64,000 bases of DNA from Escherichia coli. GTDB taxonomy: Bacteria; Pseudomonadota; Gammaproteobacteria; Enterobacterales; Enterobacteriaceae. Under the pieces are notes generated by a model, which did not search any database, was not told the DNA's origin, and was given only the letters and a program-made list of their open reading frames with translations. Positions 4,118-57,874 of the stretch are shown here, one piece after another. The stretch's first letter is position 1. Each line of letters begins with the position of its first letter. The translations under genes were made by a program, and so were the position numbers. The stretch lies in assembly GCF_017348835.2 (NCBI RefSeq), contig NZ_CP071375.1. One strand, given 5' to 3'.

Positions 4118-4547
4118 CATACCGGTCCGACCCCGTACTGCTCACGCAGCTTATCCAGCAGTGGCATTATTTTTTCCAGAGGCGGTCGAACTCCGCCTTC
4201 GCAAAATAAGCGGAAGCCTGGCGAAGGATATCGTTACTGCGGCGCAGTTCACGATTTTCACGTTCCAGCTCTTTCAGACGCTGACGTTCAGCGGTGGTGA
4301 GTCCACCATCACCACTCCCGGTATCCCGCTCATGCTGGCGAACCCAGACACGCAGAGTCTCCGGCGTACAGCCAATCTTTGGGGCAATGGAACAAATTGC
4401 CGCCCACTGTGAGTCATATTCATCCTGACTTTCCAGAACCATACGAATCGCCCGCTGACGGACTTCGGGGGAAAAACGAGTATTTTTAGTCATCCTGTTT
4501 ACCTCTTTCTCAGGGAGTTTAGTCTCCAGGATTTCCGGGGCGGTTCA
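4118..4547 (-). mobile_element. Truncated IS3-family element (IS629/IS1203-like): terminal repeat, complete orfA, first ~20 codons of orfB
   Basis: Bases 4118..4547 match the full copy at 56514..57823 (same end sequence, ending ggggcggttca); identity stops at 4118 inside orfB. Confidence 0.8.
4167..4493 (-). CDS. IS629-like transposase OrfA
   Basis: 108-aa ORF ([19 protein letters not shown]...), identical to the orfA at 57443..57769. Confidence 0.85.
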
Positions 4548-4841
4548 CAACGCTGTCTCGCCCTATTTCTGACAATAAATCAAACGGTTGTCTGGATTTG
4601 GCATGATAACGTTTAACGATCCGGTCACGTACAATCGGGCTATCGGGTAACAAGTTATCGAAGAAGTTAAATACGGCATCAGAGGTGATATTCCCCCTCT
4701 GCAATGGCAGCGAAAGTGACAACGGTCTGGCATAACGGCTGGCTAACCACTCCGGTGCATACTTAAAGGTGTGCGCGCCGTTGGCTAACTTCGTTAACTC
4801 GCCTACCCGCTGGTTGTTCATCCAAGTGACTAGTTTGGGCA

Positions 4842-5108
4842 TTACCACTCCAGATCTTGCTGTTCTGTTGATTCTGGCGAGGCATTTTTCGTGTCGCATA
4901 GCGTCATTGAGAGTTCAAGCGACTGTAAAATCTTAAAAAATGTCGTGAGCGAGGTATTGTCAGGGTTGTTTTCGAAATTGGAAATCGTCGCCTGCTTAAT
5001 GCCGATTTTTTTCGCCAGCTCGCTCTGCGTCCAGCCATTTTGCTGGCGAACCAGTTTCATTGCATTCGCTAATTGCGTTGGGCTATAGATCTTCTGAAAG
5101 CTCATCAT
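4842..5108 (-). CDS. hipB: HipB antitoxin / transcriptional repressor
   Basis: ORF matches HipB (MMSFQKIYSPTQLANAMKLVRQQNGWTQSELAKKIG...); stop overlaps the hipA start by 1 nt as in the known operon. Confidence 0.9.
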   Translation of the reverse strand: MMSFQKIYSPTQLANAMKLVRQQNGWTQSELAKKIGIKQATISNFENNPDNTSLTTFFKILQSLELSMTLCDTKNASPESTEQQDLEW

Positions 5109-5129
5109 GTCATACGTCCACAGCAAATT

Positions 5130-5243
5130 TATCCGCTTAAGGGGATATTATCAGTTTTATCCTTTAGTGAGGATAAAGTCAATCTGGAAACACATCTTAT
5201 CCGCTCTACGGGATAAACGCTGCGATATCCGCGATCGCGGATA
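5130..5243. promoter_or_regulatory. hipBA operator region: four TATCC-N8-GGATA HipB operators
   Basis: TATCC-N8-GGATA palindromes seen at 5130-5147, 5158-5175, 5198-5215 and 5226-5243, directly upstream of hipB. Confidence 0.8.
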
Positions 5244-5318
5244 AAAGGGAGGCTTTAAAAGCCGTTTGAAGTCGGCAATATTAAGCCGCATGCCATCTCG
5301 ACATGCGGCTTATACGGT

Positions 5319-8300
5319 TTACCAGCTATATTTCACTCCCAGCATGCCCTGAGTATCGCTATAGCCTTTATCACCTAGTTGCACACCGACATTCCCCCAC
5401 AGGCTAAGGTTGTTATTTACTTTCGCCTCAACCCCGGTACGTACTTCACCGAGATTACGCGCACCATCACGGCTTACGGTTTGACCATTCATCTTCACGG
5501 CGTAGACTTCGCTATTGTTGATCCAGTTCGCTTCAATGTAAGGCTGGAACTCACGCTGTTTACCATCGTCACGCTGGTGATGGCTATTCAGGTAGGTTTT
5601 CACCCCAAGTCGCGTTTGCACGTTTCCGTCGCCTTCCGTTTCAATGCGCGTTCCGTCTTTCCGGGTATGGTCAGAATCTTTCACACCCATCCAGGTGATT
5701 TGTACCTGTGGCTGGACGTACCAGGTATTCAGCGTCCCTTCGCTGCCACTAAATGTTCCCGCTTCAAAGGTATACCCACCCTCAACAGAGGCCGTCACAC
5801 CGCGAGAATCATAGTCGTCAGCAGAACGGTTATCGGAACTGACACTGTTATCAAACCAGTTATACAGCACCCAACTGTCAACATAAGCGCCGGTCTTATT
5901 CGCATCGTTCTGATACCAGGTCGCGTACAGCCCAGCGCTGTAACCGCTGATGCGCCCATCCGATTTATAACCCACACGATTACTCTGAGTATTACTGTGC
6001 TGATTGGCGTAGCCTGCCATCACGCCAAGATGCCAGCGATCCTGCGCGTTGCTACTCCACTGCGCCAAATCGCCGCCTAGCTGCAATACATAGCGGTTAG
6101 CCTGAGCATTTAGCTGGCCGTCACCGGTCCTGAAACGTTCGTGTCCCCCGACATGACGCATCCACATACTGCTTGCCGAACCCTGAGAAAGCCGTGAATC
6201 TGTATACTGCGGCTCACCCAGACGGTCGTGTAAGCGATGGCTAAACAGCGAGTTGGCTGCGGCAATGTTGCTGATATAGCTTCCGGCCTCCGGGCGATAA
6301 ACTGATGGGCCTTCCGGATCCACAACAGGGGGATTATTGATGGGATCGGGTGTATCCGCTGGCGTTACGCCGTCCCATTTACTGGTCAGATACCAGTTTT
6401 TCTCGTCATTCCCCTTCCCTTTAGCCAGCGTGTAGACGTAAGCCCCAGCTTCGACAGTTCCGGTGGTCAGCGCGAAGTTACCTGCAGAATTACCGCCAAC
6501 CTCAATGAGTTCAATACCGTTGACCGTTTGCGCACCGACGCCGCCAATGTTATCAACCCGAACGCGAGTGTTCCCTTGGGTATCGCCTTTCACGTTCATC
6601 TTATCGGTGGGTGAATTATCGCCGCCCAGCGTCGCGTTGAACGTTATCAGGCCATTGTTTCCGGTATAGTTGCCGTTAACGGTCAGTACATTCCCCGGTT
6701 TTCCTCCTTCACTGTTCATTTGAACCGTGCCGCCATTCTTCAGGTTGCCGCCGATTGTGGTTTTAGCGACACGCAGTGTCCCCCCAGACATAACGTTCAC
6801 ATCACCTGCAGTGGTGACATTTCCCGACATCACACCGCTGTTATGGATATTAATGTGTTGACTTACCGTATTAATGGCAGAGTCGGAACCGAAAGCAATT
6901 TCCCCCCCCCCACGATATCCGTCGTACCCTGATACGCCGAGGAATCGTTGTTAAGAGTCAGGATCCCGGTACCCAGTTTTGTCAAATCACCGCTACCGCT
7001 GATACTGTGCGTCATCGCCCAGCTACGCTCAGTGGAGATGGTGAGCAGGCCATTATTGATAACGGAAGCATCACCCAGGTTTTTCTGCTCGTTGACGCTG
7101 AGCGCGCTGCCTGTATCAATGTTGAATTGCCCCACAAAGCGGCTATTATCGCCATCCAGCTCTACATCTGTCCTGGCGGTTGCGCTCACGATACCCTTCC
7201 CGCTTATGCTATTACGCAGTTCGCCAGTCACGTTTTTTAGCGTTAACAGACCGTCATTGGCAATATTTCCTCTGCCTAACCCCTGCGTATTATCGAGGCT
7301 GACTTCCGCATTTGGGCTAACGCTGGTTAACGCATTGTAGCGTGCATTAAGCCCCTCAATAGCCAGCGTTCCCCCTGTAACATTCAGGTTTCCGCCACCT
7401 GTCAGTTCACCCTGACTGATCCCACCTTTGGACACCGTGGGAACCGTCCTGAACGCCCACCAATGAATATTCTTTGTTATTAATCAGTCCATTATTGGAA
7501 ATATTGACTTTGCCATTACCGAAATATCCATTATAGAGTCTGCGTACCGTGATGACAGAGTCTTGATCCTGCACATTCAGGGTTCCGACACCGGTGGCAT
7601 TGCCACCGATAATCGTATTTTCAGCCGTAATCAGTCCACCCTCGCGAATAGTCGCCTCCCCAGTTCCTTGATTACCAATTTGAAATTCAATTGAGGAATC
7701 GTTATTTTTCATTAGCCACTCGCCACCCTTTTCAACGACAACCTGGCCATTACTGCCCGCCTGATAGCCTAAAATGGCGACGATTGAACTCGTGACGTAA
7801 CCCTTATCCGTAATATTTAATGAGCCTGTACCGTAACTCCCTATTTCGAATAATTCGGTCGTCAAAACCGAGTCCTCTCCCTCAACATTAACCGTCCCGA
7901 CGCCTGCAGCTTGAGTACCTAATCTTAAATAGCCTCCATCGACGTGACCCTTCTGTTTAATATTCAGCGTCCCCGTTCCGGATTGACCCACATTTAAAGG
8001 CCTTGCATTATTTCCGCTATCATACAATCGCCAGGTGCCACCCAAAACATTAACGGTACCCTCCGAATCCTCATTACCGCCAATGACGCTGGTAGTAATA
8101 GTGGTTAAGGAGGCATTACCGCCAGCCAAAATATTAAGCACTCCAGTGCCATACCAGCCAACCAGGTAGGCATCATAAGCAACATCAGTATCAATATTGG
8201 TAATCTGACCATTATCAACTTCCAGACTCGCACCAGACGCTGAACCGCTTAGTGCCAGCAAAACACCCAGCGTCAATCTACTGAATTTCGTTGTCAGTCC

Positions 8301-8414
8301 AGAGGATTTACGCAAATTAACCGTCGATGTTTTACCTGCCCTGCGAGTTAATTCCGAGCAGGCCTGAAATACCTGTAGAGTGCAATTCCATATCACGCGA
8401 TAGATTCTATTCAT
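5319..8414 (-). pseudogene. yneO: AIDA/Ag43-type autotransporter adhesin, frameshifted into three ORFs (yneO-like)
   Basis: ORF 7407..8414 has an extended autotransporter signal peptide (MNRIYRVIWN...), ORF 6863..7435 a Gly/Thr-rich passenger, ORF 5319..6833 a beta-barrel ending in a W terminal residue; all three are in different frames. Confidence 0.8.
6902..6911. repeat. Homopolymeric tract, 10 x C on + strand (G10 on coding strand) at the frame break inside the autotransporter
   Basis: tcccccccccca read directly; both flanking reading frames are open across the tract. Confidence 0.9.
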
Positions 8415-8944
8415 ATAAACGCTCCATATACAAACAATACAGCCACGAAAGAGATGAGTCGTCAGACATTAAAAATGAAACTTATTAAATTGTCAGAGGT
8501 CTGTATTGAGTGTTAGTTGGAGGTGCGAAGGTGTCAATTTGGCTAATTTGCTAATGCTTTCGAATTGATAGATTAAAAATTGCATAGTTCTTATTTTATT
8601 TAAAAATGAACTATGAGTTATTGTTGCTTAATAAGAAAACTGTTTCTTTCAATAGGAAAATTATCATCATCATATTTAACAAAGAATAGCACTAATTGCT
8701 AAAAATCGAAGTTTATTAAACCCCTTTTGCATCCATTAATGTCTTTAGGAATATTCGCTATAAAATAAGGGTTATGCTTAATGCTTTAAGAAAAATAGCA
8801 ATTTTCCCTTGAATATAGTACTGGTGATGGAACGATGAATCTGCAAGCTGGCATTTAACAAGCCAGCTCTAAAAGAAGGGAAATAAGAAAAACTATACTC
8901 AAAAACTAACAGCCACGGTCATCATGATGTGGCTGTCAATGAAA

Positions 8945-10537
8945 CTATAACCCAGGCGCTTTCCATAACGACGTCGTCAGTCCATGATCAACCAGCCCCA
9001 ACTGATCCTGATAAACTGCCTGCCACTTATCGCGTGAATCCTGATAAAGTTCATGCTTTTCCGGGTCTGGTGTGTGCGTCCGTTCCCAGCGAACCAGGCG
9101 TTCTCCGGTTTCTGCCATTGATGAAAAAATTCCGGCACCGACGCCAGCTGCAATGGCACATCCTAATGCAGTGGCTTCTTTGACCACCGGAATATTGACG
9201 GGTAATCCCGAGACATCAGCGAGAATTTGACTCCATAATTTCCCTTTTGAACCTCCGCCAGCAAAAACCAGCGAGGTGGGATGAATATTCGAGAAATCAG
9301 CAATTTGCTGCAAGTTACACGCTGATACAATCGCCGCATTTTCTTCCAGCGCACGGAACAATGTCGCTTTGTTACATTTATCCGGGTCAATGGACAAGTT
9401 AATAAAGGAAGGTGCGGCGTGATACCAGGTTTTAAAGCGCATTCTGTCGGAGAATATCGGCATTACGCCCCACGACCCAGGCGGCACCCGACTGGCCATC
9501 TCTTCCAGCAGCGTATAGGTGTCGATGCCTAAACGTTCGGCAATCAGTTTTTCTTCGGCACAGAAAGCATCGCGGAACCAGCGCATGGTGAATCCGGTAA
9601 AAAAGCTTATAGATTCAGCTTGTACCATGCCAGGAATAACATGAGGATTAACGCGCACGTTCATTTCTGGGTCTGTCACCGGCGCGGCTAAATTTACAAC
9701 TTGCTGCCAGAATGTGCCGCCAAGAACCGCGGTTTGTGCCGGACGCACAACGCCTAACCCCAGGCAACCAAGCTGCACGTCGCCTCCTCCAACGACCACC
9801 GGAGTGCCCACCTTCAGACCGCAGAGTTCCGCCGCTTGTGAACTTACCACGCCCAGCAATGTGCCGGTTTCTTTGACAGGAGAAAGAATATCGGCACGCA
9901 GGCCAGCCATATCCAGCAATGCAGGTTTCCAGTCACGGATGGTTAGATCAAGAAGTCCCGTGGTGCCAGCGTTAGAGGGATCCACCGCAAGTTCGCCGCT
10001 GAGCATATAGGCCAGCCAGTCGCTGATCATGGTGATGGTTGATGCCTGACGGTAAATATCGGAACGATGGTGCGCCAGCCAAAGTAATCTGGGGATGGCA
10101 CTTAAAGCCAGTGTTTGTCCGGTCGCGCGATAAACTTCGTTTTCAAAGGTATTGTTGTGCAGTTCTTTAAGTTCGCTAACTTCACGCGCCGCTCTGGCAT
10201 CCACATTGGCGCAGGCCCAGATCGGTGTTCCTTCATTGTTATATAAAACAATGCCTTCACGCATCGAACATGCCGAAACGGCAGCGATATACTCCGGGGC
10301 TATGCCGGCGTTGTGCAACGCCTGGCGCATACACTCACACGCCAGTTGCCAGTTTTTGTTGAGATCAAATTCCATAGAACCAGGAACGTCCGGTACTGCC
10401 AGATGCCGCCACTCCGCCTGTCCCACTGCTATTTGATTGCCTTCCAGGTCGAATATCACAGCCCGAATACTTCCGGTGCCTGCATCCAGCGCCATCAGGT
10501 AGTACTTTGATTCTGAAGGGGTAAAGAGTCGAACCAT
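8945..10537 (-). CDS. lsrK: Autoinducer-2 kinase
   Basis: 530-aa FGGY carbohydrate kinase ORF; divergent from lsrACDBFG with lsrR between. Confidence 0.9.
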
Positions 10538-10615
10538 TAGATTATCCTCGGCTTATGCGTTCTGTCTGTTCCTCTATACGTTCTCCATCATTCCCGGTAA
10601 TAAGGTCATGCAAAT

Positions 10616-11569
10616 TTAACTACGTAAAATCGCCGCTGCTGTGTCCTGATCGGTAACCAGTGCGTTGATATAACCGCCTTTCATTGCAGCGGCAATTGCT
10701 TCGGCTTTATTTTCTCCCCCTGCCACGCCAACCCGGACGGGTATGGTCTTCAGCGCGCTTAAAGGTAAGCCAATCAGTTCGTTATGTATTTTGATATCCG
10801 TGACAACGTCACCTTTTGCATCAAAAAAGTAGCCTAAAATGTCGCCAACCGCCCCTTTTCGGCCAATCATTAACTGTTCGCCCTGGCTGATATAACCGGA
10901 GCGAATGATTGTCGCGTCGTCTTGTTGACTCACGGCCCCAATGCCGACAATCGCCACATCCGCTGCTTGCGCGGCTAGCAGAACATCTTTGACGCAATTT
11001 TCATTTTTTAGCGTACGGGCAATGTCAGCGGAGGATGCCCGCAACGGAGCCGGAATAATATTCACACTGCACGCCGCGTTAAGCTGCCCGATACCCGTCA
11101 TATAAGAACCGACGCCACCGGAGAGCGTGACCAGGCGAATTTGCTGTGACGAAATAAAACCACTTAAGCGTTGCAGCGTATTCATGGTTGCCTCGCCAAA
11201 ACCAATCGCCAGCATCTGTTGTGGTTGAAGTAAACTCATCAACATATGCGCCGCGCCTATCCCCAGTCGCCCGCCGACATCAGCATCCGCAAGCCCAGGG
11301 ATCACCCGGACATGTTGCAGCGAAAACTGACGACGTAAGTGAGTTTCATATTCCAGACAGCCTTCAAAGCGAGAATTAATCTGTACGCGAATAATGCCGG
11401 ACTGATGCCCTTTCTCCAGTAATCGCGACACTTTCAAACGTGTCAGGCCGAGACGATCGCTGATCTCGCTCTGGGTCAGCCCGTCGTGGTAGTAAAACCA
11501 CGCGATCCGCGCGACCTGTTCTTCTTCACACATTCCCTGTTCTGAAATTGCCGAATCGTTGATTGTCAT
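10616..11569 (-). CDS. lsrR: lsr operon repressor (SorC family)
   Basis: 317-aa ORF with N-terminal HTH and sugar-binding domain; position in lsr locus. Confidence 0.9.
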
Positions 11570-11817
11570 AATTCATTCTTCACTTTGAACATATTTAAAT
11601 CTTTAATGCAATTGTTCAGTTCTTGCGCATTTATATCTGTGATGGCAACCACAGTTTGACTCTACGAGCATGAACAAACGCAACCGTGAAAATCAAAATA
11701 GCATAAATTGTGATCTATTCGTCGGAAATATGTGCAATGCCCACCTAAGGTTATGAACAAATTAAAAGCAGAAATACATTTGTTCAAAACTCACCTGCAA
11801 AACTGAACGGGGGAAAT
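11570..11817. promoter_or_regulatory. Divergent lsrR / lsrA promoter region
   Basis: 248-bp AT-rich intergenic region between divergent lsrR and lsrA; individual binding sites not resolved by eye. Confidence 0.4.
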
Positions 11818-33336: not shown

Positions 33337-33376
33337 CGTTCGTGCCGTTCCACTACTGGCACGGCTTCGCTAATCA

Positions 33377-33772
33377 TTATTCTGAGGCAAAGGCATAGCC
33401 TTCATCTTCCCAGCCGGTTATCCCGCCGAGCATGATTTTAACCGGCTTTCCGAGTCGAGCCAGTTTGAGTGCCGCACGGTCTGCACCGTTACAATGTGGC
33501 CCCGCGCAATACACCACAAATAGCGTATCGTCGGGCCATTCGGCCATTCTTTCTGCGGTCATTTGCTTATGGGGTAAATGGAGAGCGCCTGGGATATGCC
33601 GACGCGCGAAGTCCTCTTCACGTCCAACCACATGAAGTAAAACGAAATCATCGCCAATATAAGCCAGAGAGTCATGAACATCGGCGCAATCTGTTTCGAC
33701 ACTCAAGCGCGCGAGAAAATGCGCCTCAGCAACTTCTGGCTTCGCTGTGGTAAATTCAGTGACATAACGCAT
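33377..33772 (-). CDS. Rhodanese-domain protein (putative sulfurtransferase)
   Basis: 131-aa ORF with a rhodanese active-site Cys loop (VVYCAGPHCNGA). Confidence 0.7.
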   Translation of the reverse strand: MRYVTEFTTAKPEVAEAHFLARLSVETDCADVHDSLAYIGDDFVLLHVVGREEDFARRHIPGALHLPHKQMTAERMAEWPDDTLFVVYCAGPHCNGADRAALKLARLGKPVKIMLGGITGWEDEGYAFASE

Positions 33773-33845
33773 ATTGCTTTGTCCTTTTGGTTTGTTGTGT
33801 TAACAATAATGTAACTAATCTACCTTTCACTGACCGCCTCTCGAT

Positions 33846-34838
33846 ATGCCAGAAATGAGCAAAATGATGACAACGTTACAACGTCCGCTGGTCATTGCAC
33901 TGGCATATGACGGGCTATGTACTTTTGAATTTGGCGTTGCCGTTGAAATATTCGGCCTGCCACGACCGGAACTGGGCGATAATTGGTATCGTTTTGCTGT
34001 TGCTGCGGTAGAACCTGGTGCGCTACAAGCCACCGGGGGGATCCACGTGGTTGCAGATGGTGGACTGGAGTTATTGCCCAACGCCGATATGATTATTATT
34101 CCTGGCTGGCGCGGAATAGATGCCAAAGTGCCGGAGATGCTATGCCAGTCATTGCGCGAGGCACACCAGCGCGGTACTCGCCTGGTATCAATATGCTCTG
34201 GCGTGTTTGTCCTTGCTGCTGCGGGCCTTCTTCATCAGCGAAAAGCAACCACCCACTGGCGCTACACTGAACAACTCCAGCACCGTTACCCTTCAATCAG
34301 CGTAAGTGACAATGTGTTATATCAGGATGAAGGACAAGTGATGACCTCCGCCGGAAGCGCCGCGGGGATCGATCTGTGTTTACATATCGTGCGCAAAGAT
34401 TTTGGTCATGAGATTGCTAATAATGTCGCCCGGCGACTGGTCATTCAGCCACATCGCCAGGGGGATCAACCACAAAATCTGACGCGCCCAATGGCCTCAC
34501 CGCGTGAAAGCCAGACGTTAGGTGCCTTATTCGACTTTTTGCAGCAGAATCTGGCACAAACACATACTGTGTCTTCCCTCGCCGAACGGGTAAATATGAG
34601 TCCGCGCACTTTTTTAAGACGTTTTGAGGCGTTAACTGGCATGACGCCCGCCCGCTGGCTGCTCAATGAGCGCTTAATACGAGTACAGGATTATCTGCAA
34701 AATTCGGTTTTTAACATCGAGAAAATTGCCGAGCTGACGGGTTTTGGCAATTCAGCGTTATTGCGTCATCACTTTCACCAACGTTTTTTATTATCTCCTT
34801 CGCAATATCGCAAAAACAGCCGTTCCCCATCACAATAA
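33846..34838 (+). CDS. GlxA/FtrA-like regulator: DJ-1/PfpI domain fused to AraC HTH
   Basis: 330-aa ORF; N-terminal DJ-1/PfpI-like fold with nucleophile-elbow Cys (ICSGVFVLAAAG), C-terminal AraC double HTH. Divergent from the rhodanese gene. Confidence 0.75.
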   Translation: MPEMSKMMTTLQRPLVIALAYDGLCTFEFGVAVEIFGLPRPELGDNWYRFAVAAVEPGALQATGGIHVVADGGLELLPNADMIIIPGWRGIDAKVPEMLCQSLREAHQRGTRLVSICSGVFVLAAAGLLHQRKATTHWRYTEQLQHRYPSISVSDNVLYQDEGQVMTSAGSAAGIDLCLHIVRKDFGHEIANNVARRLVIQPHRQGDQPQNLTRPMASPRESQTLGALFDFLQQNLAQTHTVSSLAERVNMSPRTFLRRFEALTGMTPARWLLNERLIRVQDYLQNSVFNIEKIAELTGFGNSALLRHHFHQRFLLSPSQYRKNSRSPSQ

Positions 34839-34945
34839 TCGCCTGATTCAGCCTTTGTTTAGATAACCTCTGCTAATATCTTTCTCATTGAGATGAAAAT
34901 TAAGGTAAGCGAGGAAACACACCACACCATAAACGGAGGCAAATA

Positions 34946-35107: not shown

Positions 35108-35116
35108 ATGACGGCG

Positions 35117-39681: not shown

Positions 39682-39817
39682 TTTCTTCTCCTGAACGCGA
39701 GGTGTTCCATAGCGTAGGCTTACTGATAACGGAGTGCAATCTTGCAAACCAGTATTACCCGCTCTTAAGCATCACGTGCTATGTTATTGACACACAAAAG
39801 CGTTGAGGAACAGTGAG

Positions 39818-40564
39818 ATGATCGTTTTAGTAACTGGAGCAACGGCAGGTTTTGGTGAATGCATTACTCGTCGTTTTATTCAACAAGGGCATAAAGTTAT
39901 CGCCACTGGCCGTCGCCAGGAACGGTTGCAGGAGTTAAAAGACGAACTGGGAGATAATCTGTATATCGCCCAACTGGACGTTCGCAACCGCGCCGCTATT
40001 GAAGAGATGCTGGCATCGCTCCCTGCCGAGTGGAGCAATATTGATATCCTGGTAAATAATGCTGGCCTGGCGTTGGGCATGGAGCCTGCGCATAAAGCCA
40101 GCGTTGAAGACTGGGAAACGATGATTGATACCAACAATAAAGGCCTGGTATATATGACGCGCGCCGTCTTACCGGGTATGGTTGAACGTAATCATGGTCA
40201 TATTATTAACATTGGCTCAACGGCAGGTAGCTGGCCGTATGCCGGTGGTAACGTTTACGGTGCGACGAAAGCGTTTGTTCGTCAGTTTAGCCTGAATCTG
40301 CGTACGGATCTGCATGGTACGGCGGTGCGCGTCACCGACATCGAACCGGGTCTGGTGGGTGGCACCGAGTTTTCCAATGTCCGCTTTAAAGGCGATGACG
40401 GTAAAGCGGAAAAAACCTATCAAAATACCGTTGCATTGACGCCGGAAGATGTCAGCGAAGCCGTCTGGTGGGTGTCAACGCTGCCTGCTCACGTCAATAT
40501 CAATACCCTGGAAATGATGCCAGTTACCCAAAGCTATGCCGGGCTGAATGTCCACCGTCAGTAA
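39818..40564 (+). CDS. ydfG: NADP-dependent 3-hydroxy acid dehydrogenase (SDR family)
   Basis: SDR ORF with TGATAGFG Rossmann motif; start MIVLVTGA. Confidence 0.9.
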   Translation: MIVLVTGATAGFGECITRRFIQQGHKVIATGRRQERLQELKDELGDNLYIAQLDVRNRAAIEEMLASLPAEWSNIDILVNNAGLALGMEPAHKASVEDWETMIDTNNKGLVYMTRAVLPGMVERNHGHIINIGSTAGSWPYAGGNVYGATKAFVRQFSLNLRTDLHGTAVRVTDIEPGLVGGTEFSNVRFKGDDGKAEKTYQNTVALTPEDVSEAVWWVSTLPAHVNINTLEMMPVTQSYAGLNVHRQ

Positions 40565-40652
40565 TTTTTATACCCGGCGTAACTGCCGGGTTATTGCTTG
40601 TCATAAAAAAGTGGTAGACTCATGCAGTTAACTCACTCACAAGCAAGAACGA

Positions 40653-41339
40653 ATGACCGTCGAAACGCAACTTAATCCCACACAGCCTGTCAATCAGCAG
40701 ATTTATCGTATCCTTCGTCGCGACATTGTCCATTGCCTGATTGCTCCAGGCACACCGTTGTCGGAAAAAGAAGTTTCTGTTCGTTTCAATGTGTCACGCC
40801 AGCCGGTTCGTGAAGCCTTTATTAAACTGGCGGAAAATGGTCTGATTCAAATTCGTCCGCAGCGTGGCAGCTACGTCAACAAAATTTCCATGGCCCAGGT
40901 GCGCAACGGCAGTTTTATCCGTCAGGCCATTGAGTGCGCGGTGGCGCGTCGGGCGGCGAGCATGATTACCGAAAGCCAGTGCTACCAACTGGAACAAAAT
41001 CTTCACCAGCAACGCATTGCCATTGAGCGCAAGCAACTGGATGATTTTTTTGAACTTGATGACAACTTCCATCAACTCCTGACGCAGATTGCCGACTGTC
41101 AACTGGCGTGGGATACCATTGAGAACCTGAAAGCGACCGTTGATCGCGTGCGCTATATGAGTTTCGACCATGTTTCTCCACCAGAAATGCTGTTACGCCA
41201 GCATCTTGATATTTTCTCTGCCCTGCAAAAACGTGATGGCGATGCGGTAGAACGTGCAATGACGCAACATTTGCAGGAAATCAGCGAATCCGTGCGCCAG
41301 ATCCGCCAGGAAAACAGCGACTGGTTTAGCGAAGAGTAA
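40653..41339 (+). CDS. ydfH: GntR/FadR-family transcriptional regulator
   Basis: 228-aa ORF with N-terminal GntR HTH. Confidence 0.85.
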
Positions 41340-41719: not shown

Positions 41720-41726
41720 GCGTGTG

Positions 41727-45306: not shown

Positions 45307-45374
45307 GTCAACATATCCTGAATCAGACATACAATATCGCAATGAAAATCAATAATATTTTAAGGAATATCTTC

Positions 45375-45608: not shown

Positions 45609-45924
45609 TATAATAAACTTACTTTTTTATCATTTTTCCACTTTAACAACATTTTGCTCCACTTTTCCACGACCAAACAACTTGAAATCTGGTTAAAATA
45701 ACACGCAACACTATTCTTCTTCCTTGAGTCCGCCCGGAACTCGAAAAACAAACCGAGTTAAAGCCATTTTTCACAAAATCGATTTTGGGTCTCACCAAAA
45801 TTACGGGGTTGCATACGCATTCGTTTATTTTCGAACGTGTACATACAAATATGCACAAAAATAATCAAAATTATTTTCTGAGATGCATTATGATATGAAC
45901 ACCAATTTCGTATAGAGTCTCACT

Positions 45925-46515: not shown

Positions 46516-46612
46516 AAAATAATCTCGGTGTGAGATGCTTTACGTCTTCCAAGCCACCTTCCTTGCCGTAAATGGAAAGATACATCTAATTATAGAATTT
46601 ATATGTTTTACC

Positions 46613-47188
46613 CTACGGCAGTGCTGGCCATTCAATATCCTGTGCAGTTGACGTATCAACACGGTTCAGCAATACCCGATACTTTTTCCATGCTTCCAGC
46701 AACGAGATTTCTTCCTCCGTTGCAATTTCCAGATCTGCAGCATCCTGAAGCGGCGCAATATGCTCACTGGCTACCTGCATCAGGCTGTTTTTTGTTTCTT
46801 CCGCCTCCCGGATCCGGAACAGTTTTTCTGCTTCCGTATCCTTCACCCAGGCTGTGCCGTTCCACTTCTGATATTCCCCTCCCGGCGATAACCAGGTAAC
46901 ATTTTCCGGTAACGGACCGAGTTCAGAAATAAATAACGCGTCGCCGGAAGCCACGTCATAAACCGTTTTACCCCGATGATCTTCAACGAGATGCCACGAT
47001 GCCTCATCACTGTTGAAAACAGCCACGAAGCCTGCCGGAATATCTGGCGGTGCAATATCGATACTGTTTGCTGGCAGACCTGTATGAGGCGGAATATATG
47101 CGTCACCTTCACCAATAAATTCATTAGTTCCGGCCAGCAGATTATAAATTTTTATGGTCCGTGGTTGTTCACTCATTCTGAATGCCAT
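46613..47188 (-). CDS. tfaQ: Tail fibre assembly protein
   Basis: 191-aa Tfa-like ORF directly downstream of the tail-fibre C-terminus. Confidence 0.8.
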
Positions 47189-48741: not shown

Positions 48742-49261
48742 TCAGCAACCCCGGTATCAGTTCATCCAGCGCGGCTGCTTTGTTCATGGCTTTGATGATA
48801 TCCCGTTTCAGGAAATCAACATGTCGGTTTTCCAGTTCCGGAAAACGCCGCTGCACCGACAGGGGGATCCCGTCGAGAATACTGGCAATTTCACCTGCGA
48901 TCCGCGACAGCACGAAAGTACAGAATGCGGTTTCCACCACTTCAGCGGAGTCTCTGGCATTTTTCAGTTCCTGTGCGTCGGCCTGCGCACGCGTAAGTCG
49001 ATGGCGTTCGTACTCAATAGTCCCTGGCTGGAGATCTGTCTCGCTGGCCTGCCGCAGTTCTTCAACTTCCCGGCGCAGCTTTTCGTTCTCAATTTCAGCA
49101 TCCCTTTCGGCATACCATCTTATAACGGCGGCAGAGTCATAAAGCACCTCATTACCCTTGCCACCGCCTCGCAGAACGGGCATTCCCTGTTCCTGCCAGT
49201 TCTGAATGGTACGGATACTCGCACCGAAAATGTCAGCCAGCTGCTTTTTGTTGACTTCCAT
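48716..49261 (-). CDS. nohA: Terminase small subunit (lambda Nu1 homologue)
   Basis: 181-aa [45 protein letters not shown]...; overlaps the A start as in lambda. Confidence 0.9.
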
Positions 49262-49450
49262 TGTTCATTCCACGGACAAAAACAGAGAAAGGAAACGACA
49301 GAGGCCAAAAAGCCCGTTTTCAGCACCTGTCGTTTCCTTTCTTTTCAGAGGGTATTTTAAATAAAAACATTAAGTTATGACGAAGAAGAACGGAAACGCC
49401 TTAAACCGGAAAATTTTCATAAATAGCGAAAACCCGCGAGGTCGCCGCCC
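49262..49450 (-). other. Lambda-type cos site: cosN 12-nt cohesive end at 49439..49450, cosB region between cosN and nohA
   Basis: Minus strand reads CCGACAGGTTACG-GGGCGGCGACCT-CGCGGGTTTTCGCTATTTATGAAAATTTTCCGGTTTAAGG, the lambda end junction, then a lambda-like region up to the Nu1 start. Confidence 0.85.
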
Positions 49451-49649
49451 CGTAACCTGTCGGATCACCGGAAAGGACCCGTAAAGTGATAATGATTATC
49501 ATCTACATATCACAACGTGCGTGGAGGCCATCAAACCACGTCAAATAATCAATTATGACGCAGGTATCGTATTAATTGATCTGCATCAACTTAACGTAAA
49601 AACAACTTCAGACAATACAAATCAGCGACACTGAATACAGGGCAACCTC

Positions 49650-49844
49650 ATGTCAACGAAGAACAGAACCCGCAGAACAACAACCCGCAACATCCGCTTT
49701 CCTAACCAAATGATTGAACAAATTAACATCGCTCTTGATCAAAAAGGGTCCGGGAATTTCTCAGCCTGGGTCATTGAAGCCTGCCGCCGGAGACTAACGT
49801 CAGAAAAGAGAGCATATACATCAATCCAGAGTGATGATGGATGA
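49650..49844 (+). CDS. Small prophage protein, YlcI/YnfO-like
   Basis: 64-aa basic ORF immediately beyond cos. Confidence 0.5.
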   Translation: MSTKNRTRRTTTRNIRFPNQMIEQINIALDQKGSGNFSAWVIEACRRRLTSEKRAYTSIQSDDG

Positions 49845-50094
49845 ACATCCCGGTTTCTTTACCTTCCCTCCCTCCCCGCACAGAACTGGCGAGCGTGAGG
49901 GACCAATATGTGAGCCATAAATGCCTTATCTTCAGAAATGCAGTTGGTATCCGAACAGGACGATATTGTAAATTCACCTAAATACGAGGCATTGCTGTAG
50001 TTGAATTGCAGTACTGTATTAGCCTGACAGTGACAGAATACGATATTGACTCTGTCACTTGTGAAATGGTCAGAATGGTTAGCAGTTATGGTGA

Positions 50095-50301
50095 TCAGTC
50101 AACCAACAGGGAATAATCCTTCGTATTCTTATCGTGCTTTACTAACGCGGCCTCAATTGCCCTGAATGCTTCCAGAGATACTTGATGTTCTATACATGCA
50201 ATTACAACATCCGGGTAACCCATCGAAATGGTGCTATTAAGCATAGTTTTTACACGAACCTGCTCCTGGGAGGGGGCATCAATGTATTGATCTTTATGCA
50301 T
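50095..50301 (-). CDS. Hypothetical prophage protein
   Basis: 68-aa ORF; function unknown. Confidence 0.4.
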
Positions 50302-50596
50302 TTTGTCGCTCCATTCGTTTGCTCTTCACTTGCGGCTAAAAATATAACGTCAAATCACTCAGCATGAAAGAGTGAAAGTTTCAGCGCGTTTCCCTTACAT
50401 AATCTGTCGTTTGTATTCTCTTCAGGCATACCGGAAAGACTAGGTATTGTCACACAACCAATACCATCGACAATCGAGATTTATATCTATTCGGTAATGT
50501 TTAAATATAACAAAACCCCGTAAAAACGAGGTTTATGGGTAATTTGTATTGTTGAATAGCATCTGATGAGAAATTGATGCTAATACTATAAACATG

Positions 50597-50770
50597 CTAG
50601 ATTAAATCAATCTTGATATCATAGCTTTCAAGACCAGTCATTTTTTCCCGTGCAGTAAACTGGATACTGGTAACTTCTTTCCCGGTCTTTTTCTTAAGCT
50701 CAATGATTTTTTTTGTTATATATTCAGAAATATCTGCTTCTGTTTTTGTTTTTAACTCTTCAATGTTCAT
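50597..50770 (-). CDS. gnsB: GnsA/GnsB-family protein
   Basis: 57-aa ORF MNIEELKTKTEADISEYITKKIIELKKKTGKEV...ESYDIKIDLI; GAGG ribosome-binding site. Confidence 0.7.
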   Translation of the reverse strand: MNIEELKTKTEADISEYITKKIIELKKKTGKEVTSIQFTAREKMTGLESYDIKIDLI

Positions 50771-50942
50771 CATTTCCTCTTTTAGTCTGTTATGACTGTC
50801 CTGGTACACAGTAGTGTCAATTATATGGAGCAAACGTATAAAAGATAAGATGAAACATCGCAATAATCAACATACGACGGTCTAAATTTCACACAAACAG
50901 ATAAAAATGATTATCATTTATTATCAATGCATTAGAATCAAA

Positions 50943-51173
50943 TCAATTCAAGAGTCTCATTGCTGCTTCCAGAATTTCTTCTGAAGTTACATGTCGATCC
51001 GCTGCTACATAAATGACTTTATGATCTCCGGTCAGAGATGGAAACCCTGCAGCCATTACAGTGAGGTGTGTTGTTTCGCCATTTGGATATTCACGCATGA
51101 TGGTGTTAACTCCGGTCATCACTGGCACTACCATTGCTGGTTCAGAGTTAAAAAAAACTATTATTTTTTTCAT
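50943..51173 (-). CDS. Small prophage protein (YnfN-like); start codon uncertain
   Basis: ORF 50943..51212 with several possible in-frame starts. Confidence 0.4.
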   Translation of the reverse strand: MKKIIVFFNSEPAMVVPVMTGVNTIMREYPNGETTHLTVMAAGFPSLTGDHKVIYVAADRHVTSEEILEAAMRLLN

Positions 51174-51444
51174 AATGTTACCGTAATATGTGAGTATCCA
51201 TCGACTAGACACTAAGCAAAAAAGCTCCCGAAGGAGCCTTCATTTTCACTTTCTTAAATCTAACGACAGATGGCTAACATTTAAGTATTGTGAAATATTA
51301 TCAAATGTAATCATCATTGATTTACAAAAGATACATTTTGCCCCGAAAGGATTTCTGTCAGAAACATCAAAAGATGATGTTCTATACTGAGAACCATGGC
51401 AACACGGGCATCTAAAGTGAATATGGTTTGTAATATTTTCTACC

Positions 51445-51657
51445 TCAAAGTGCCACTACATGAACAGCTGCAGGGCCTTTAGGTCCGTTCTCAATACCAA
51501 ATTCGACTTCCTGATTCTCAGTTAACGTTTTGAAATCGTTGCTCTGAATAGCTGAGAAATGCACAAACACATCTTTGCTACCATCTTTCGGCGTGATGAA
51601 ACCAAAACCTTTTTCAGGGTTAAACCATTTCACTAAACCAGTCATTTTGTTAGACAT
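51445..51657 (-). CDS. cspI: Cold-shock protein
   Basis: 70-aa cold-shock-domain ORF ([21 protein letters not shown]...). Confidence 0.9.
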
Positions 51658-52020
51658 CATTATTACCTTTTGAAGAAGTTAGCCCTTGGGCAGAATGGTC
51701 CGAAAAAAAATATCAGAGAGAAAAACCAACAAGGAAATCTCAAGAGGTACAAATAATAAAATTATAACAATGACTGCTTCAGATAATTTTGTAACAAACC
51801 AGAACACCATTAACGCATGATTAACCAACCATAGCAAGGATTACTTTTGTAAAGAAAAACACACGAATGAAACAATAGCTTTATTTATTAATAAAACGTG
51901 TCATTCTGTCTAATGACCTTTTATCTTACCCTTAAGATTTCAAGGATTTTGACTCATGGAAGAGTCCTTTTTATTTAAATTTCACATTCAGCGCTAAAAA
52001 TAATCCGATTTAATATTAAT

Positions 52021-53050
<1,030 letters not shown>

Positions 53051-53163
53051 GGATATTTATCAGGATTTATCGGCTTCAAATCCCCGGATATGTTAAATCT
53101 TACCTCACCAGTGATGGGCACTGGCGGGAGGAGGATGTCAATCTGATAAACACAGAGGTGACT

Positions 53164-53424
53164 ATGGATTACACAAATCTACCAAAACAAACTTTTGCTG
53201 ATTTAATCGCACTCAGGCAAGCAGTCGTAGCTCTAATCAACTTGTTGCCGGAGAAGGAAAAGGAATTAGTTAAAGCGCTTCTTAACAGAACTGCCGCCGA
53301 TTTTTCATCATATCCACTGACAGATGACCTTGCGGACCTTCCTGAATTAATTGCAGCGTCCGCCATTAAGCTTACTGAAGAGATTTACCCTCCTCAAAAA
53401 TCTTCACAAAATTCCTGCGAGTAA
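53164..53424 (+). CDS. Hypothetical acidic protein on the opposite strand inside the lysis cassette
   Basis: 86-aa ORF from ATG at 53164, preceded by AGAGG at 53153-53157; helical acidic sequence; no homologue recognised. Confidence 0.4.
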   Translation: MDYTNLPKQTFADLIALRQAVVALINLLPEKEKELVKALLNRTAADFSSYPLTDDLADLPELIAASAIKLTEEIYPPQKSSQNSCE

Positions 53425-53923
53425 CTTCAATGCAATAATCGTAAAACGCCGCAAACTGCTCATCGCGGCGTTTTTTTTCATCTTCAGAAGGAATCAGCAC
53501 CGACAATTTTTTATTCAGATCAGCGACGCTGCCCTCCAGTTTTTCAATGGGCGATTCAATATCATCTTTTTCTGACCGCAATGCCGTCGGTGGCGTCTTC
53601 AGAGAACCAGTAATTCTTCCCGGTAGCTTTCCTTTGTAGGTTATCCACACATTCTGCGCCTCTAAAATTATGGGGCGCTTTTCCGGCGACTGCTCATCCC
53701 CTTCACATAACCCGGCAGCAACATCCAGGAAGACCTGTCTGATGCTCATTCTGGCTGCTGCCTCATAAAACTCCAGCGCGGCACCTTCAACACGGTCCAG
53801 CGAGATGTCCAGGTCAAAAATTTCACCGTCAAAGCGTTCTTTGTCCTGTAATGCTAAAGTTACCGTAACTTTATTCTCAAAATTGCGGATCCCTTTCACA
53901 ATCAGTTCATAGTTTTGAGTCAT
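53372..53923 (-). CDS. Prophage protein between holin and endolysin (YdfR-like position)
   Basis: 183-aa ORF; same position as K-12 ydfR, but that gene is recalled as shorter. Confidence 0.5.
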   Translation of the reverse strand: MTQNYELIVKGIRNFENKVTVTLALQDKERFDGEIFDLDISLDRVEGAALEFYEAAARMSIRQVFLDVAAGLCEGDEQSPEKRPIILEAQNVWITYKGKLPGRITGSLKTPPTALRSEKDDIESPIEKLEGSVADLNKKLSVLIPSEDEKKRRDEQFAAFYDYCIEVTRRNFVKIFEEGKSLQ

Positions 53924-53927
53924 TGAA

Positions 53928-54143
53928 TTACTCTCCTCTCGCAGCCTTACGCCTGTCTTCTTTAATCTTGAAATAAAGATTTGTCAGATACGTCAGCAGG
54001 CCAAAAACCAGGCTACCCAGCACACCGATTGCAGCCCACTGTGACGGAGTTACTTTATCGAGTAACTGCAATGCCCAGAAACCAGCATTACCCGCCGATG
54101 TGCCATAGGCAACACCTGTTGTTAACTTATCCATTGATTTCAT
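53928..54143 (-). CDS. essQ: Holin (phage-21 S-type pinholin-like)
   Basis: [71 protein letters not shown]; two TM helices and a charged C-terminus. Confidence 0.85.
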
Positions 54144-54363
54144 ATCCTCACCCCGATGTACACGGATGGTGCAATATGTTTGAAAAGATCGGAGTCTACG
54201 GGGTAGTTTTGACAGCACACGTTGTTCTCAACGGCGCTAAAGAAACATACACATTAAAAATGTGAGTAATTATTTTTTAAAGAAAGTCATATATAAAATA
54301 ATAATACGAGAAATGTTTTCATATTTAGTGTACTGTATACGGCCATTTATACAGGAAAAGCCT

Positions 54364-54534
54364 ATGTCAGAACGTAAAGACTCAAAATCACGCCGTAATT
54401 ATCTCGTTAAATGTTCCTGCCCAAACTGCACCCAAGAGTCAGAACACAGTTTTTCAAGAGTACAAAAAGGTGCCCTTTTGATCTGCCCTCATTGCAACAA
54501 AGTATTCCAGACAAATCTTAAAGCTGTAGCCTGA
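54364..54534 (+). CDS. Small zinc-ribbon protein (56 aa, two CxxC pairs)
   Basis: MSERKDSKSRRNYLVKCSCPNCTQESEHSFSRVQKGALLICPHCNKVFQTNLKAVA; ribosome-binding site AGGAAAAG. Confidence 0.55.
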   Translation: MSERKDSKSRRNYLVKCSCPNCTQESEHSFSRVQKGALLICPHCNKVFQTNLKAVA

Positions 54535-54593
54535 TTGATTTTATTAGTAACAAGTATTTTTTATATTTTAATAATATATTTAAAGCAGATAAT

Positions 54594-54617
54594 AAAAAAC
54601 CCGCCTGAGCGGGTTTG
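54594..54617. terminator. Bidirectional intrinsic terminator
   Basis: A-run + CCCGC-ctga-GCGGG + ttt. Confidence 0.7.
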
Positions 54618-54897
54618 AGATTGTGGTGCTTTTTGTGGGAGTCATCCACTTACGCACTTTGTTTTGCCATGCCAGCAGTTAGCTTCTGCTGTAAAACTAT
54701 TCATGCAGCAAACCTGCACTTCACCACAATGGTTAGCATACTTTTCCTGATTAAGATTTTGCCAAATATGCTGGCCATTGTTTCATGTATTGGACCTCCT
54801 TAATTTTCATTAAAGAGATCCAATATTCACTACTCTGTCCGTATCTCTACTCAGGCATCAGCCTTCTTCGTTATCGTATACAGACGAGCGATGAATT

Positions 54898-55113
54898 TTA
54901 ATCAGTAATGATGACATTTGCTGCTGCAGGACCTTTAGCACCACTCTCTATAGAGAAGGTAACCTTTTGACCTTCAAATAAGGTTCGATAATTATCATTC
55001 TGAATCGCAGAAAAATGCACAAACACATCTTTACTACCATCAACAGGAGAAATAAAGCCGAAACCTTTATCAGCGTTAAACCATTTTACTAAACCAGTCA
55101 TTTTATTTGACAT
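54898..55113 (-). CDS. cspB: Cold-shock protein
   Basis: 71-aa cold-shock-domain ORF. Confidence 0.9.
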
Positions 55114-55411
55114 TCTACATTCCTTAACTTGAGCCTTTCGGCATAAATGGTTTGCATAACAGAAACGACTTCGTACTTAATTGGAGAGACTCAAAGAAGG
55201 AATAAGTGAATAACACCTGAAATGAGAACTGCTTTAGTAAACTACTTCGTATATCGTCTGTTCTTCAAACCGACGCAGTCATTAACTCATAGTTGAACAT
55301 ATGAAGCAATGTTTATTTTAGACATCCAGCCACCTTCAACCCTATCAAAAAAGTAGTTTTCTCCAGGAACGTGTGTATGGTGCACCAGGTTATCAGTATT
55401 AAGGAGTTTTT

Positions 55412-55625
55412 CTGTCCCCTAAAATGACAGGAATTGTCAAAAACTTTGACTACAAAAGCAGCAAAGGTCTTATATTCCCATCCGATGGCGTATCGATGCC
55501 CAGCTTCACGTTTCAGCTCTCAATCTTCGAGATGCAGAAGAAATTACCACAGGATTACGCGTGGAATTTTGCCGGATAAATGGTTCGCGTGGACCTTCAA
55601 CTGCCAATGTTTATCCCGGGATGAG
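55412..55625 (+). pseudogene. cspF: cspF/cspH-like cold-shock gene with a frameshift
   Basis: N-terminal MTGIVKNFD...PSDG is in one frame; the rest ([42 protein letters not shown]) is in another frame that runs on to 55950. Confidence 0.45.
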
Positions 55626-55656
55626 ATTCAATATCTCTATTGCCCCATTTAAAGCA

Positions 55657-55690
55657 CAAAAACCCGCTTATAAGCGGGTTTTCTACTTTT
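55657..55690 (+). terminator. Intrinsic terminator
   Basis: aaaaa-CCCGC-ttataa-GCGGG-tttt. Confidence 0.7.
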
Positions 55691-55788
55691 TTCTAAACGT
55701 CGGATACACAAAGCCCATCGTTGAGAAAATCTTATCCATGTTTTTTGAAAAATGCAAACATCATGTCGCCATCTTCAGCAAAAATCAT

Positions 55789-56513
55789 TTATCTCGTCAC
55801 CTTCCTCAATTGCGCTTCCGCGTATGCTTCTTCCTGCCAGCACTTTGTTACCAGTTTACCAATGACGTCAGCATACCCCTTATACCACTGATAATCGGTC
55901 AGGTCTGGTACCAGCTTCTGGACATGACGTCGTGCCAGCGTGGTCGGTAAACGACTAAACCGGTTTCCATTACAACGCCCACAAATCTTATATACCGGTA
56001 CGCCATGAAACCGGGTTCTTTTTTCATCCAGAACAATCCCTTTACCCTTACACCCTCTGCACGCTGTGCTGACTTCGCCCTTACCATGGCAATGCTGACA
56101 TAGTTCCTTTACCCATTCTTCCTTGATTACAGATTCCCCGCGTCTGTAGTGTTTCACCACTTCGCGCAATACATTATAAAATCCCGTACCTGAACAATGC
56201 TCACAGCGAGCCTTACTTGCCGCAGACCTAGAGTAATCAGCAAAGGCAAAATTCACGAGGTAAGGAATAATCTGTAACCGGATTTCTTCACTCAATTTGT
56301 TCAATGTCGGGTTATCCAGTGCCATCGCGTAATTTAGCAGGCCTTCAATCGCAAACTGAGGGTCCTGAACACCAACTTTTGCCAGAAATAAGGCCAACCC
56401 AAGTGGTGCTTTCGACTGCACCATCCCCTGCGCTGCCATTACATCCGTAATTGTTAAACAACCGGTGCCTGTCGCTGGAGCGTCATCGCTCAATTTTGGA
56501 GATTTTGGGGAGT
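55789..56513 (-). CDS. quuQ: Late-gene antiterminator Q-like protein with four CxxCxGxG zinc motifs; 5' end removed by IS629
   Basis: 234-aa ORF starts at TTG 20 bp from the IS end; frame is open right up to the IS boundary at 56514. Sits upstream of the cold-shock morons and lysis genes. Confidence 0.6.
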
Positions 56514-56555
56514 TGAACCGCCCCGGGTTTCCTGGAGAGTGTTTTATCTGTGAAC

Positions 56556-57443
56556 TCAGGCTGCCAGATCATTATTTCCGATGGAAGCATAATAAGCTTT
56601 TTCTGCTTCTGCCGGAGGAATATGGCCCAGCCTTTCCAGCAATCGTCGATTGTTATACCAGTCCACCCACGTTAGTGTGGCCAGTTCCACTTCTGTCCGG
56701 TTTTTCCAGCTCTTACGGTGTATTACCTCCGCTTTGTAAAGACCATTGATGCTCTCAGCCATCGCGTTGTCATACGAGTCGCCAGTACTCCCTGTTGATG
56801 CCAGTAATCCGGCTTCCTTAAGCCGCTGCGTGTAGGCCAGCGATACATACTGAGAACCTTTATCACTGTGATGGATTGTGCCGGACGGCCGACGGGCCCA
56901 CAACGCCTGCTCCAGTGCATCCAGCACGAATGTTGTTTCCATGGATGATGAGACCTGCCATCCCACGATGTATCCGGCGAACACATCAATGATGAACGCC
57001 ACATAAACGAAGCCCTGCCATGTGCTTACCCAGGTAAAATCAGCCACCCACAACTGGTCTGGACGTTCTGCCACGAACTGACGGTTTACGCGGTCGCATG
57101 CGGCAACGGCTTTCCGGCTGACGGTAGTGCGGACCTTTTTACCCCGGAGAACACCGGCAAGTCCCATAACTGCCATGAGACGTGCCACAGTGCATCTGGC
57201 CACTCTGATACCTTCCCGTAACAACTGACGCCAGACTTTACGCACACCGTATACCTGGTGATTTTCATCGTATACGCGCTGTATCTCTTTCTTCAGCCAG
57301 TCATCGTGCTGCGCACGGGCACTGCGTTTATCCGGATGATGTCGCTGTTGCTGACAATGGTAATACGTTGACGGGGCAATATGCAGTTCGCTGCATACCG
57401 GTCCGACCCCGTACTGCTCACGCAGCTTATCCAGCAGTGGCAT
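56556..57443 (-). CDS. IS629-like transposase OrfB (DDE); expected to be made as an OrfAB fusion by -1 frameshift
   Basis: 295-aa ORF; A-rich slippery stretch (GGAAAAAATAATG) at the orfA/orfB overlap. Confidence 0.9.
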   Translation of the reverse strand: MPLLDKLREQYGVGPVCSELHIAPSTYYHCQQQRHHPDKRSARAQHDDWLKKEIQRVYDENHQVYGVRKVWRQLLREGIRVARCTVARLMAVMGLAGVLRGKKVRTTVSRKAVAACDRVNRQFVAERPDQLWVADFTWVSTWQGFVYVAFIIDVFAGYIVGWQVSSSMETTFVLDALEQALWARRPSGTIHHSDKGSQYVSLAYTQRLKEAGLLASTGSTGDSYDNAMAESINGLYKAEVIHRKSWKNRTEVELATLTWVDWYNNRRLLERLGHIPPAEAEKAYYASIGNNDLAA

Positions 57444-57769
57444 TATTTTTTCCAGAGGCGGTCGAACTCCGCCTTCGCAAAATAAGCGGAAGCCTGGCGA
57501 AGGATATCGTTACTGCGGCGCAGTTCACGATTTTCACGTTCCAGCTCTTTCAGACGCTGACGTTCAGCGGTGGTGAGTCCACCATCACCACTCCCGGTAT
57601 CCCGCTCATGCTGGCGAACCCAGACACGCAGAGTCTCCGGCGTACAGCCAATCTTTGGGGCAATGGAACAAATTGCCGCCCACTGTGAGTCATATTCATC
57701 CTGACTTTCCAGAACCATACGAATCGCCCGCTGACGGACTTCGGGGGAAAAACGAGTATTTTTAGTCAT
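57443..57769 (-). CDS. IS629-like transposase OrfA
   Basis: 108-aa ORF identical to 4167..4493. Confidence 0.9.
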
Positions 57770-57874
57770 CCTGTTTACCTCTTTCTCAGGGAGTTTAGTC
57801 TCCAGGATTTCCGGGGCGGTTCATTAAAGATTTTTTTGTGCATGCCGATAGTGCTTTTTTAAAAGGAGAAATCT

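Follow-up and report, generated by a model that had tools for sequence, protein, structure and literature searches.

The 64,000-nucleotide stretch of Escherichia coli DNA analysed here (the window; contig NZ_CP071375.1 of assembly GCF_017348835.2) spans the hipBA-lsr-mar-Qin region. The interval between the two copies described below aligns to positions 1,591,882-1,643,213 of the K-12 genome and is colinear with the genome of PE164, a strain from a pig in China. Two copies of an insertion sequence (IS) of the IS629/IS1203 group lie in it: a truncated one (4108-4547) within hipA, and a complete one (56514-57823) that adjoins ydfT', a Q-type antiterminator gene of a Qin-type prophage. We consider it very probable that these are copies of a highly active IS in a pig-associated clone, that both are scars of IS-linked deletions, and that a RecA-dependent deletion between them is possible.

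The relation between the two copies was defined by a repeat scan followed by base-by-base extension. Positions 4108-4547 and 57384-57823 form an exact direct repeat, 440 bp without a mismatch, which lies on the minus strand in both places. The two starts are 53,276 bp apart, and similarity ends abruptly at both edges; that a perfect match of 440 bp occurs by chance in 64 kb is impossible. The right-hand repeat is the third of the complete element next to its left inverted repeat (IRL). A sensitive BLAST search of the window with the full element recovered only the two copies, at 4108-4547 and 56514-57823, and no further IS629-like fragments in the 64 kb. The initial annotation had proposed two IS629-like copies in the same orientation and far apart, a partial one in hipA and a full one adjoining Q, with identical shared sequence; the extent of the repeat, the open reading frames (ORFs) and the alignment with K-12 all agree with this. 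The start has to be moved from 4118 to 4108 and the length of the shared segment corrected from about 430 to 440 bp; its coordinates are otherwise right, including the right end (57823).

IS3-family elements of the IS629/IS1203 group are about 1.2-1.5 kb long, have imperfect terminal inverted repeats of the form 5'-TG...CA-3' and duplicate 3-4 bp of the target site. The copy at 56514-57823 (minus strand; assigned from its inverted repeats, ORFs, protein profiles and an Rfam match) is 1310 bp long and ends in such imperfect TG...CA repeats, the right inverted repeat (IRR) lying at 56514 and the IRL at 57823. When the repeats are compared, both ends read TGAACCGCCCCGG... in inverted orientation, with all 13 of the terminal 13 bases and 22 of the first 25 identical. 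Two ORFs with a -1 frameshift signal are present, as is usual in the IS3 family: orfA (57443-57769, minus, 108 aa; Pfam HTH_Tnp_1) and orfB (56556-57443, minus, 295 aa; Pfam HTH_21 and rve) overlap at ATGA directly after an A-run that precedes the orfA stop, and the ALIL frameshift pseudoknot (Rfam RF01497) is recognized at 57372-57488 with 120.3 bits. The NCBIfam profile NF033516 (transpos_IS3) is matched with 311.8 bits against a cut-off of 160, orfA covering profile positions 1-86 and orfB positions 93-369.

In its length, its imperfect TG...CA repeats, the overlap of orfA (helix-turn-helix, HTH) with orfB (DDE), the -1 site at an A-run and the ALIL pseudoknot, this element resembles IS629, IS1203 and IS3411. 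A copy on plasmid NZ_CP023734.1 is 100% identical to it over the full length, and plasmid copies annotated as "IS629 transposase OrfB" or "IS1203 family" are 95.6-96.2% identical over 1310 bp, so that it differs from labelled IS629 or IS1203 copies by a nucleotide divergence of about 4%. Subtypes of IS629 differ from each other by 4-5%, and IS1203 and IS3411 are regarded as isoforms (PMC3271280); the observed identity thus falls within the subtype spread, and "IS629-like" is a fair label, judged here by comparison with annotated plasmid copies. In PE164 the RefSeq annotation calls the copies "IS3 family transposase" only. Further points of likeness to IS629, IS1203 and IS3411 are the 4-bp duplication at the hipA insertion, and the multicopy and prophage-enriched distribution (PMC3271280).

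The copy in hipA (4108-4547, minus strand) comprises IS positions 1-440, as established by its exact match to 57384-57823, its ORFs and Rfam. It retains the IRL (outer end at 4547), an intact orfA (4167-4493), the slippery A-run and the first 60 nt of orfB; lacking the DDE catalytic domain and the IRR, it cannot transpose. The 5' fragment of hipA (4548-4842, minus, codons 1-98; ORF, K-12 alignment and Pfam PF13657, Couple_hipA) abuts the IRL and is followed by hipB (4842-5108), and the 3' fragment (3697-4107, minus, HipA residues 305-440; ORF, K-12 alignment and PF07804, HipA_C) lies on the other side of the relic. Across the latter junction, codons 1-20 of orfB are fused in frame to HipA residues 305-440, forming a chimeric ORF of 156 aa (3697-4167, minus). 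The ALIL pseudoknot of the relic is matched at 4096-4212 with 88.9 bits versus 120.3 bits in the full copy, the lower score being due to the last 12 nt, which are hipA sequence. Judging from the sequence, a -1 frameshift from the intact orfA of the relic would give an OrfA-OrfB'-HipA' protein of about 265 aa.

The history of this relic can be read from related genomes. PE164, which is 99.97% identical to the window over 52 kb, has a full-length IS at the identical hipA site, flanked as CAAC-IS-CAAC by a 4-bp duplication, compared with the native sequence ...CACCAACGCTG...; the junction between the 5' part of hipA and the IRL is 100% identical in the two genomes. In F2_81, a pig isolate from Australia, the flanks are 100% identical to those of the window at both loci, and the IS is absent. 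Relative to PE164, about 1.49 kb is missing from the window (1,490 bp when counted on PE164). Of this, 870 bp belong to the IS and 621 bp to the hipA side, the latter being 617 bp of unique hipA and one copy of the duplication, and the ends of this deletion are joined at a 2-bp CA microhomology (4107/4108). The comparison shows that the IS had inserted at codon 99 of hipA with duplication of CAAC, the state kept in PE164, and that a subsequent deletion of about 1.49 kb in the lineage of the window took the IS from position 441 through the IRR together with 621 bp of the hipA side. Many deletions have been attributed to IS629, and the transposase together with the IS-excision enhancer (IEE) yields microhomology-joined deletions adjacent to the IS (PMC9943667). 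The truncation of the relic may have come about in this way, through a break at the IRR end whose repair used the microhomology; replication slippage would explain it equally well.

The two junctions of the relic differ in their distribution. The junction of the hipA 5' part with the IRL recurs in draft and Logan contigs with at least 99.1% identity, and with at least 99.96% in seven of the eight contigs shown from the 16 that were read, all of which break at the IS. The junction of the hipA 3' part with the IS was found nowhere else: its 40-mer is absent from GTDB species representatives and from metagenome contigs, a 400-bp query over it had no match among the 5,426 complete E. coli genomes, and no identical protein is on record for the chimeric ORF or for two shortened forms in which a contig edge might plausibly leave it. 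The 440-bp relic could therefore be suspected to be an assembly artefact, the real genome having a full IS in hipA as in PE164. This suspicion is fed by the uniqueness of the 4107/4108 junction among the public sequences searched, and by three draft contigs of the lineage which extend into the 3' part of hipA and carry the junction of hipA with the IRR of a full IS. However, a clean loss of 1.49 kb at a 2-bp microhomology with otherwise perfect flanks is typical of a real deletion, and a full-length copy would still give direct repeats, then of 1310 bp, which would only strengthen the conclusion of the initial annotation. We regard an artefact as very unlikely; more probably, the truncation is peculiar to the source strain.

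The IS629 insertion of the clone shared by PE164 and the window is one of several independent inactivations of hipA among related E. coli. In HH35 and PO06021 an IS3-family element interrupts hipA at a codon other than that used in the window, and in GCA_014583015.1 the gene has a 683-bp internal deletion between 11-bp repeats.

At the second locus, ydfT' (55789-56513, minus strand; ORF, K-12 and F2_81 alignments) lacks its first 28 nt and abuts the IRR of the complete element, and flxA (57875-58207, plus strand; the same evidence) begins 51 bp beyond the IRL. F2_81 has no IS at this site, and both its flanks are 100% identical to the window; the complete IS stands in place of 3,140 bp of F2_81 (3861-7000 of the extracted F2_81 locus), which hold the 5' end of ydfT, ydfU, a hypothetical gene, rem, hokD, relE, relB and ydfV. 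Two toxin-antitoxin modules of the Qin-type prophage are gone with this segment. The flanks of the IS, ...GGGGAGT and TTAAAG..., share no duplication, so that the target-site duplication that is present at the hipA insertion in PE164 (CAAC) is absent at the Q-side copy (GAGT versus TTAA). A missing duplication typically reflects recombination between IS copies or a deletion beside the IS, and an insertion accompanied by loss of DNA is a further known cause (PMC11708052). Here it points to a later or concomitant deletion, and any of these three events may have produced the Q-side structure.

The junction of ydfT' with the IRR recurs at the end of a 52,118-bp draft contig, JAEOKZ010000034.1 of GCA_019365205.1, whose opposite end is the junction of the hipA 5' part with the IRL; this contig matches exactly the interval between the two IS copies of the window. 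Only GCA_019365205.1 was informative for the junction among the look-ups of ydfT' protein variants, the 234-aa and 245-aa forms not being on record and the 216-aa form being common to genomes with intact ydfT. The junction of the IRL with flxA was not found elsewhere, and its 40-mer is absent from metagenome contigs. Matches to the two Q-side junctions with at least 80% query cover in complete genomes were all two-piece joins of separate loci. Among apparent cases of an IS beside flxA, that in ET846 is an older degenerate copy at another site, about 112 bp upstream, and that in OkiPb01711 consists of unlinked pieces.

The sister genome PE164 is discordant at this locus. Its Q-side IS (39783-41093 of the extracted PE164 locus) is oriented opposite to that of the window and differs from it at four positions, with identical flanks. 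Compared with window positions 56510-59107, its left boundary is shifted to the left by 4 bp (...TTTTGGG joined to the IRL) and its IRR adjoins position 59107, which falls within an ISNCY relic; 4,427 bp are missing, there is no target duplication, and flxA-ydfW is absent from the entire PE164 genome. The direct orientation of the two copies is thus specific to the lineage of the window; in PE164 the two loci are inverted repeats, and recombination there would invert 52 kb instead of deleting it. One ancestor for the Q-side structures of the window and PE164 was considered and rejected, as no derivation works without a flip or replacement of the IS. This discordance between near-clonal genomes is the only mildly unusual point of the analysis.

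More generally, near-identical genomes of the clone differ in their IS629 insertions. Searches with IS-containing junctions gave about 25-33 matching places each in PE164 and F2_81, with 31 and 33 places for PE164 in two such searches, that is, about 30 copies. With a trio of near-clonal genomes of which F2_81 is free of the IS at the Q-side site, the window has it on the minus strand and PE164 has it in the opposite orientation, neither IS showing a target duplication, one could imagine that natural isolates preserve on the Q side a case of insertion with deletion (break capture) by an IS of the copy-out-paste-in type. The DNA would have been broken at the end of a resident IS or next to it, and the gap widened and then sealed by capture of another IS629 circle, with no need for a standard transposition and a separate deletion. 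We put this forward tentatively, as an idea that is rather improbable.

The unique interval between the repeats (4548-56513, 51,966 bp) was delimited by alignment with K-12 and the annotation of PE164, both of which bear out the statement of the initial annotation that it holds lsr, mar and prophage late genes. Its left part contains hipA', hipB, a pseudogene of a yneO-type autotransporter, lsrKR-ACDBFG, tam, uxaB, glsB, sad and ydeA; the middle part marCRAB, eamA, ydeE, a rhodanese gene with ftrA, mgtS, dgcZ, dcp, ydfG, rspR, ydfI and ydfJ'; and the Qin-type late region pinQ, tfaQ, terminase, cspI, lysis genes, cspB/F and ydfT'.

RecA-dependent recombination requires far less than 440 bp of perfect homology. 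The repeat pair, with its same orientation and uninterrupted 440 bp at 100% identity, has the orientation and homology of a RecA deletion substrate, and the objection that the shared segment might be too short or too divergent, which the initial annotation had itself raised, fails on the length and identity observed. A crossover would remove the interval of 51,966 bp, 870 bp of the IS and one 440-bp repeat, 53,276 bp altogether. Crossing-over within a chromosome or between sister chromosomes would be the likely route; the chromosomal product would read hipA-3', the 440-bp relic and flxA, so that flxA would become the right-hand neighbour of the relic, and the reciprocal product would be a circle of the interval and one complete IS, non-replicating for want of an origin. 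The earlier claim that recombination would delete the segment is therefore mechanistically sound, given a direct repeat of this length and identity; it is at the same time conditional and generic, and the event itself is not evidenced.

Deletions between pre-existing IS copies tens of kilobases apart have been observed, an IS5A pair having removed CP4-44 and 30 genes, and the rate of homologous recombination between IS copies is about 4.5e-5 per genome per generation (PMC5009759). Several points weigh against the deletion, and against the structure from which it is predicted. Deletions between pre-existing IS copies are a minority, with 14 of 98 events in mutation-accumulation lines (PMC5009759). 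The junction of the hipA 3' part with the IS comes from one assembly and was found in no other public sequence searched. The hipA-3' flank lies within 1.5 kb of the flxA flank in none of the 5,426 complete E. coli genomes; the parental junction of the hipA 3' part with the IS is absent from the same genomes, and so the missing recombinant there is uninformative. In short-read assemblies the contigs end at the IS, so that a joint of hipA with flxA could not appear in them. Finally, the viability of a strain with the deletion is presumed from K-12, in which, going by the knockout collections, no orthologue of an interval gene is known to be essential, and hipB is dispensable once hipA is broken; the main text of Kato and Hashimoto (2007), on a large-deletion map, names none of these genes.

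The same interval could in principle be removed by transposase and not by homologous recombination, if an IS3-type strand transfer joined the IRL of the relic (4547) to the IRR of the full copy (56514). IS3-family elements do form IRL-IRR junctions, the two ends are intact and face each other across the interval, one of these ends has a complete transposase gene and its frameshift signals next to it, and the number and variability of IS629 insertions in PE164 and F2_81 show that the element is active in the clone. The product would be an abutted IRL-IRR junction, the relic and the full IS standing in tandem, and not a single 440-bp copy. Against this route, the ends are 52 kb apart and IS3-family transposases prefer the two ends of one element; no abutted IRL-IRR junction is present within the window, the product not having been searched for in other data. 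We judge it highly improbable, and prefer RecA-dependent recombination as the route of any such deletion. There is next to no chance that the lsr-mar-prophage segment is the mobile cargo of a composite transposon or translocatable unit: it is bracketed by IS sequence in direct orientation, and a circle excised by recombination, since it includes a complete IS, could integrate again wherever another IS629 copy lies, but the left copy ends at IS position 440, without orfB and without the IRR that a functional outer left end requires, the interval is ordinary core chromosome and Qin-type prophage whose position and gene order agree with K-12, F2_81 and PE164, and the two insertions have separate histories.

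The configuration of the window resembles deletions between IS copies described in E. coli, in which direct IS repeats tens of kilobases apart flank non-essential genes and a cryptic prophage (PMC5009759). It differs from the documented cases in that one partner is a 440-bp fragment and the event itself was not observed. In the long-term evolution experiment with E. coli, deletions reportedly arose by recombination between dispersed IS copies. The scars themselves recall the excision of IS629 and adjacent deletion in enterohaemorrhagic E. coli (PMC9943667): the relic has a 2-bp microhomology at its junction and a deletion that spans the IS end and host DNA, and the Q-side copy stands in place of 3.1 kb with no target duplication beside it. 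In contrast to the IEE events described, in which the IS is lost with adjacent DNA, the IRL-proximal third of the IS survives in hipA.

More can be said on the past of both copies than on their possible future. IS629-type elements actively remodel this pig-associated clone, hipA being inactivated, the relBE/hokD region lost and about 30 copies present. If deletions of the predicted kind arose in populations, they would alter the uptake of autoinducer-2 (lsr quorum sensing) and mar-dependent antibiotic tolerance. The pair in the window is not special, since with about 30 IS copies in PE164 it is only one of hundreds of possible pairs, and the predicted deletion would be nothing out of the ordinary for IS repeats scattered over a chromosome. 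This IS group has long been known, and its behaviour here is textbook, well-documented IS structural variation; beyond a strain-level record the significance is small, this being one of many repeat pairs able to remove 53 kb that include lsr and mar.

Some neighbouring features deserve mention. The ISNCY (ISEsa1-like) transposase relic at 58644-59985 (minus strand) is split into ORFs of 123 and 310 aa. It carries IS3-family insertions in other genomes and is the site of the right-hand breakpoint in PE164, and thus looks like a recurrent IS target; the protein of its N-terminal ORF is too widespread to mark a lineage. The autotransporter gene of the yneO/ECSE_1600 type (5319-8414, minus) is broken into ORFs of 335, 190 and 504 aa. 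In GCA_019365205.1 its last two ORFs are fused as one of 705 aa, and F2_81 has a deletion that extends from the autotransporter to lsrB.

Between ydeE and mgtS lies a 1.5-kb segment (33337-34845) with genes for a rhodanese-like protein and a regulator of the FtrA/AraC type; PE164 shares this segment, and K-12 does not have it. Two leaders of the cspA-thermoregulator type (51399-51815 and 54882-55274), members of a repeat family with 73% identity, are located upstream of the cspI-like and cspB genes. A match to the sok antitoxin RNA is found at 60059-60230, in the prophage early region beyond the ISNCY relic.

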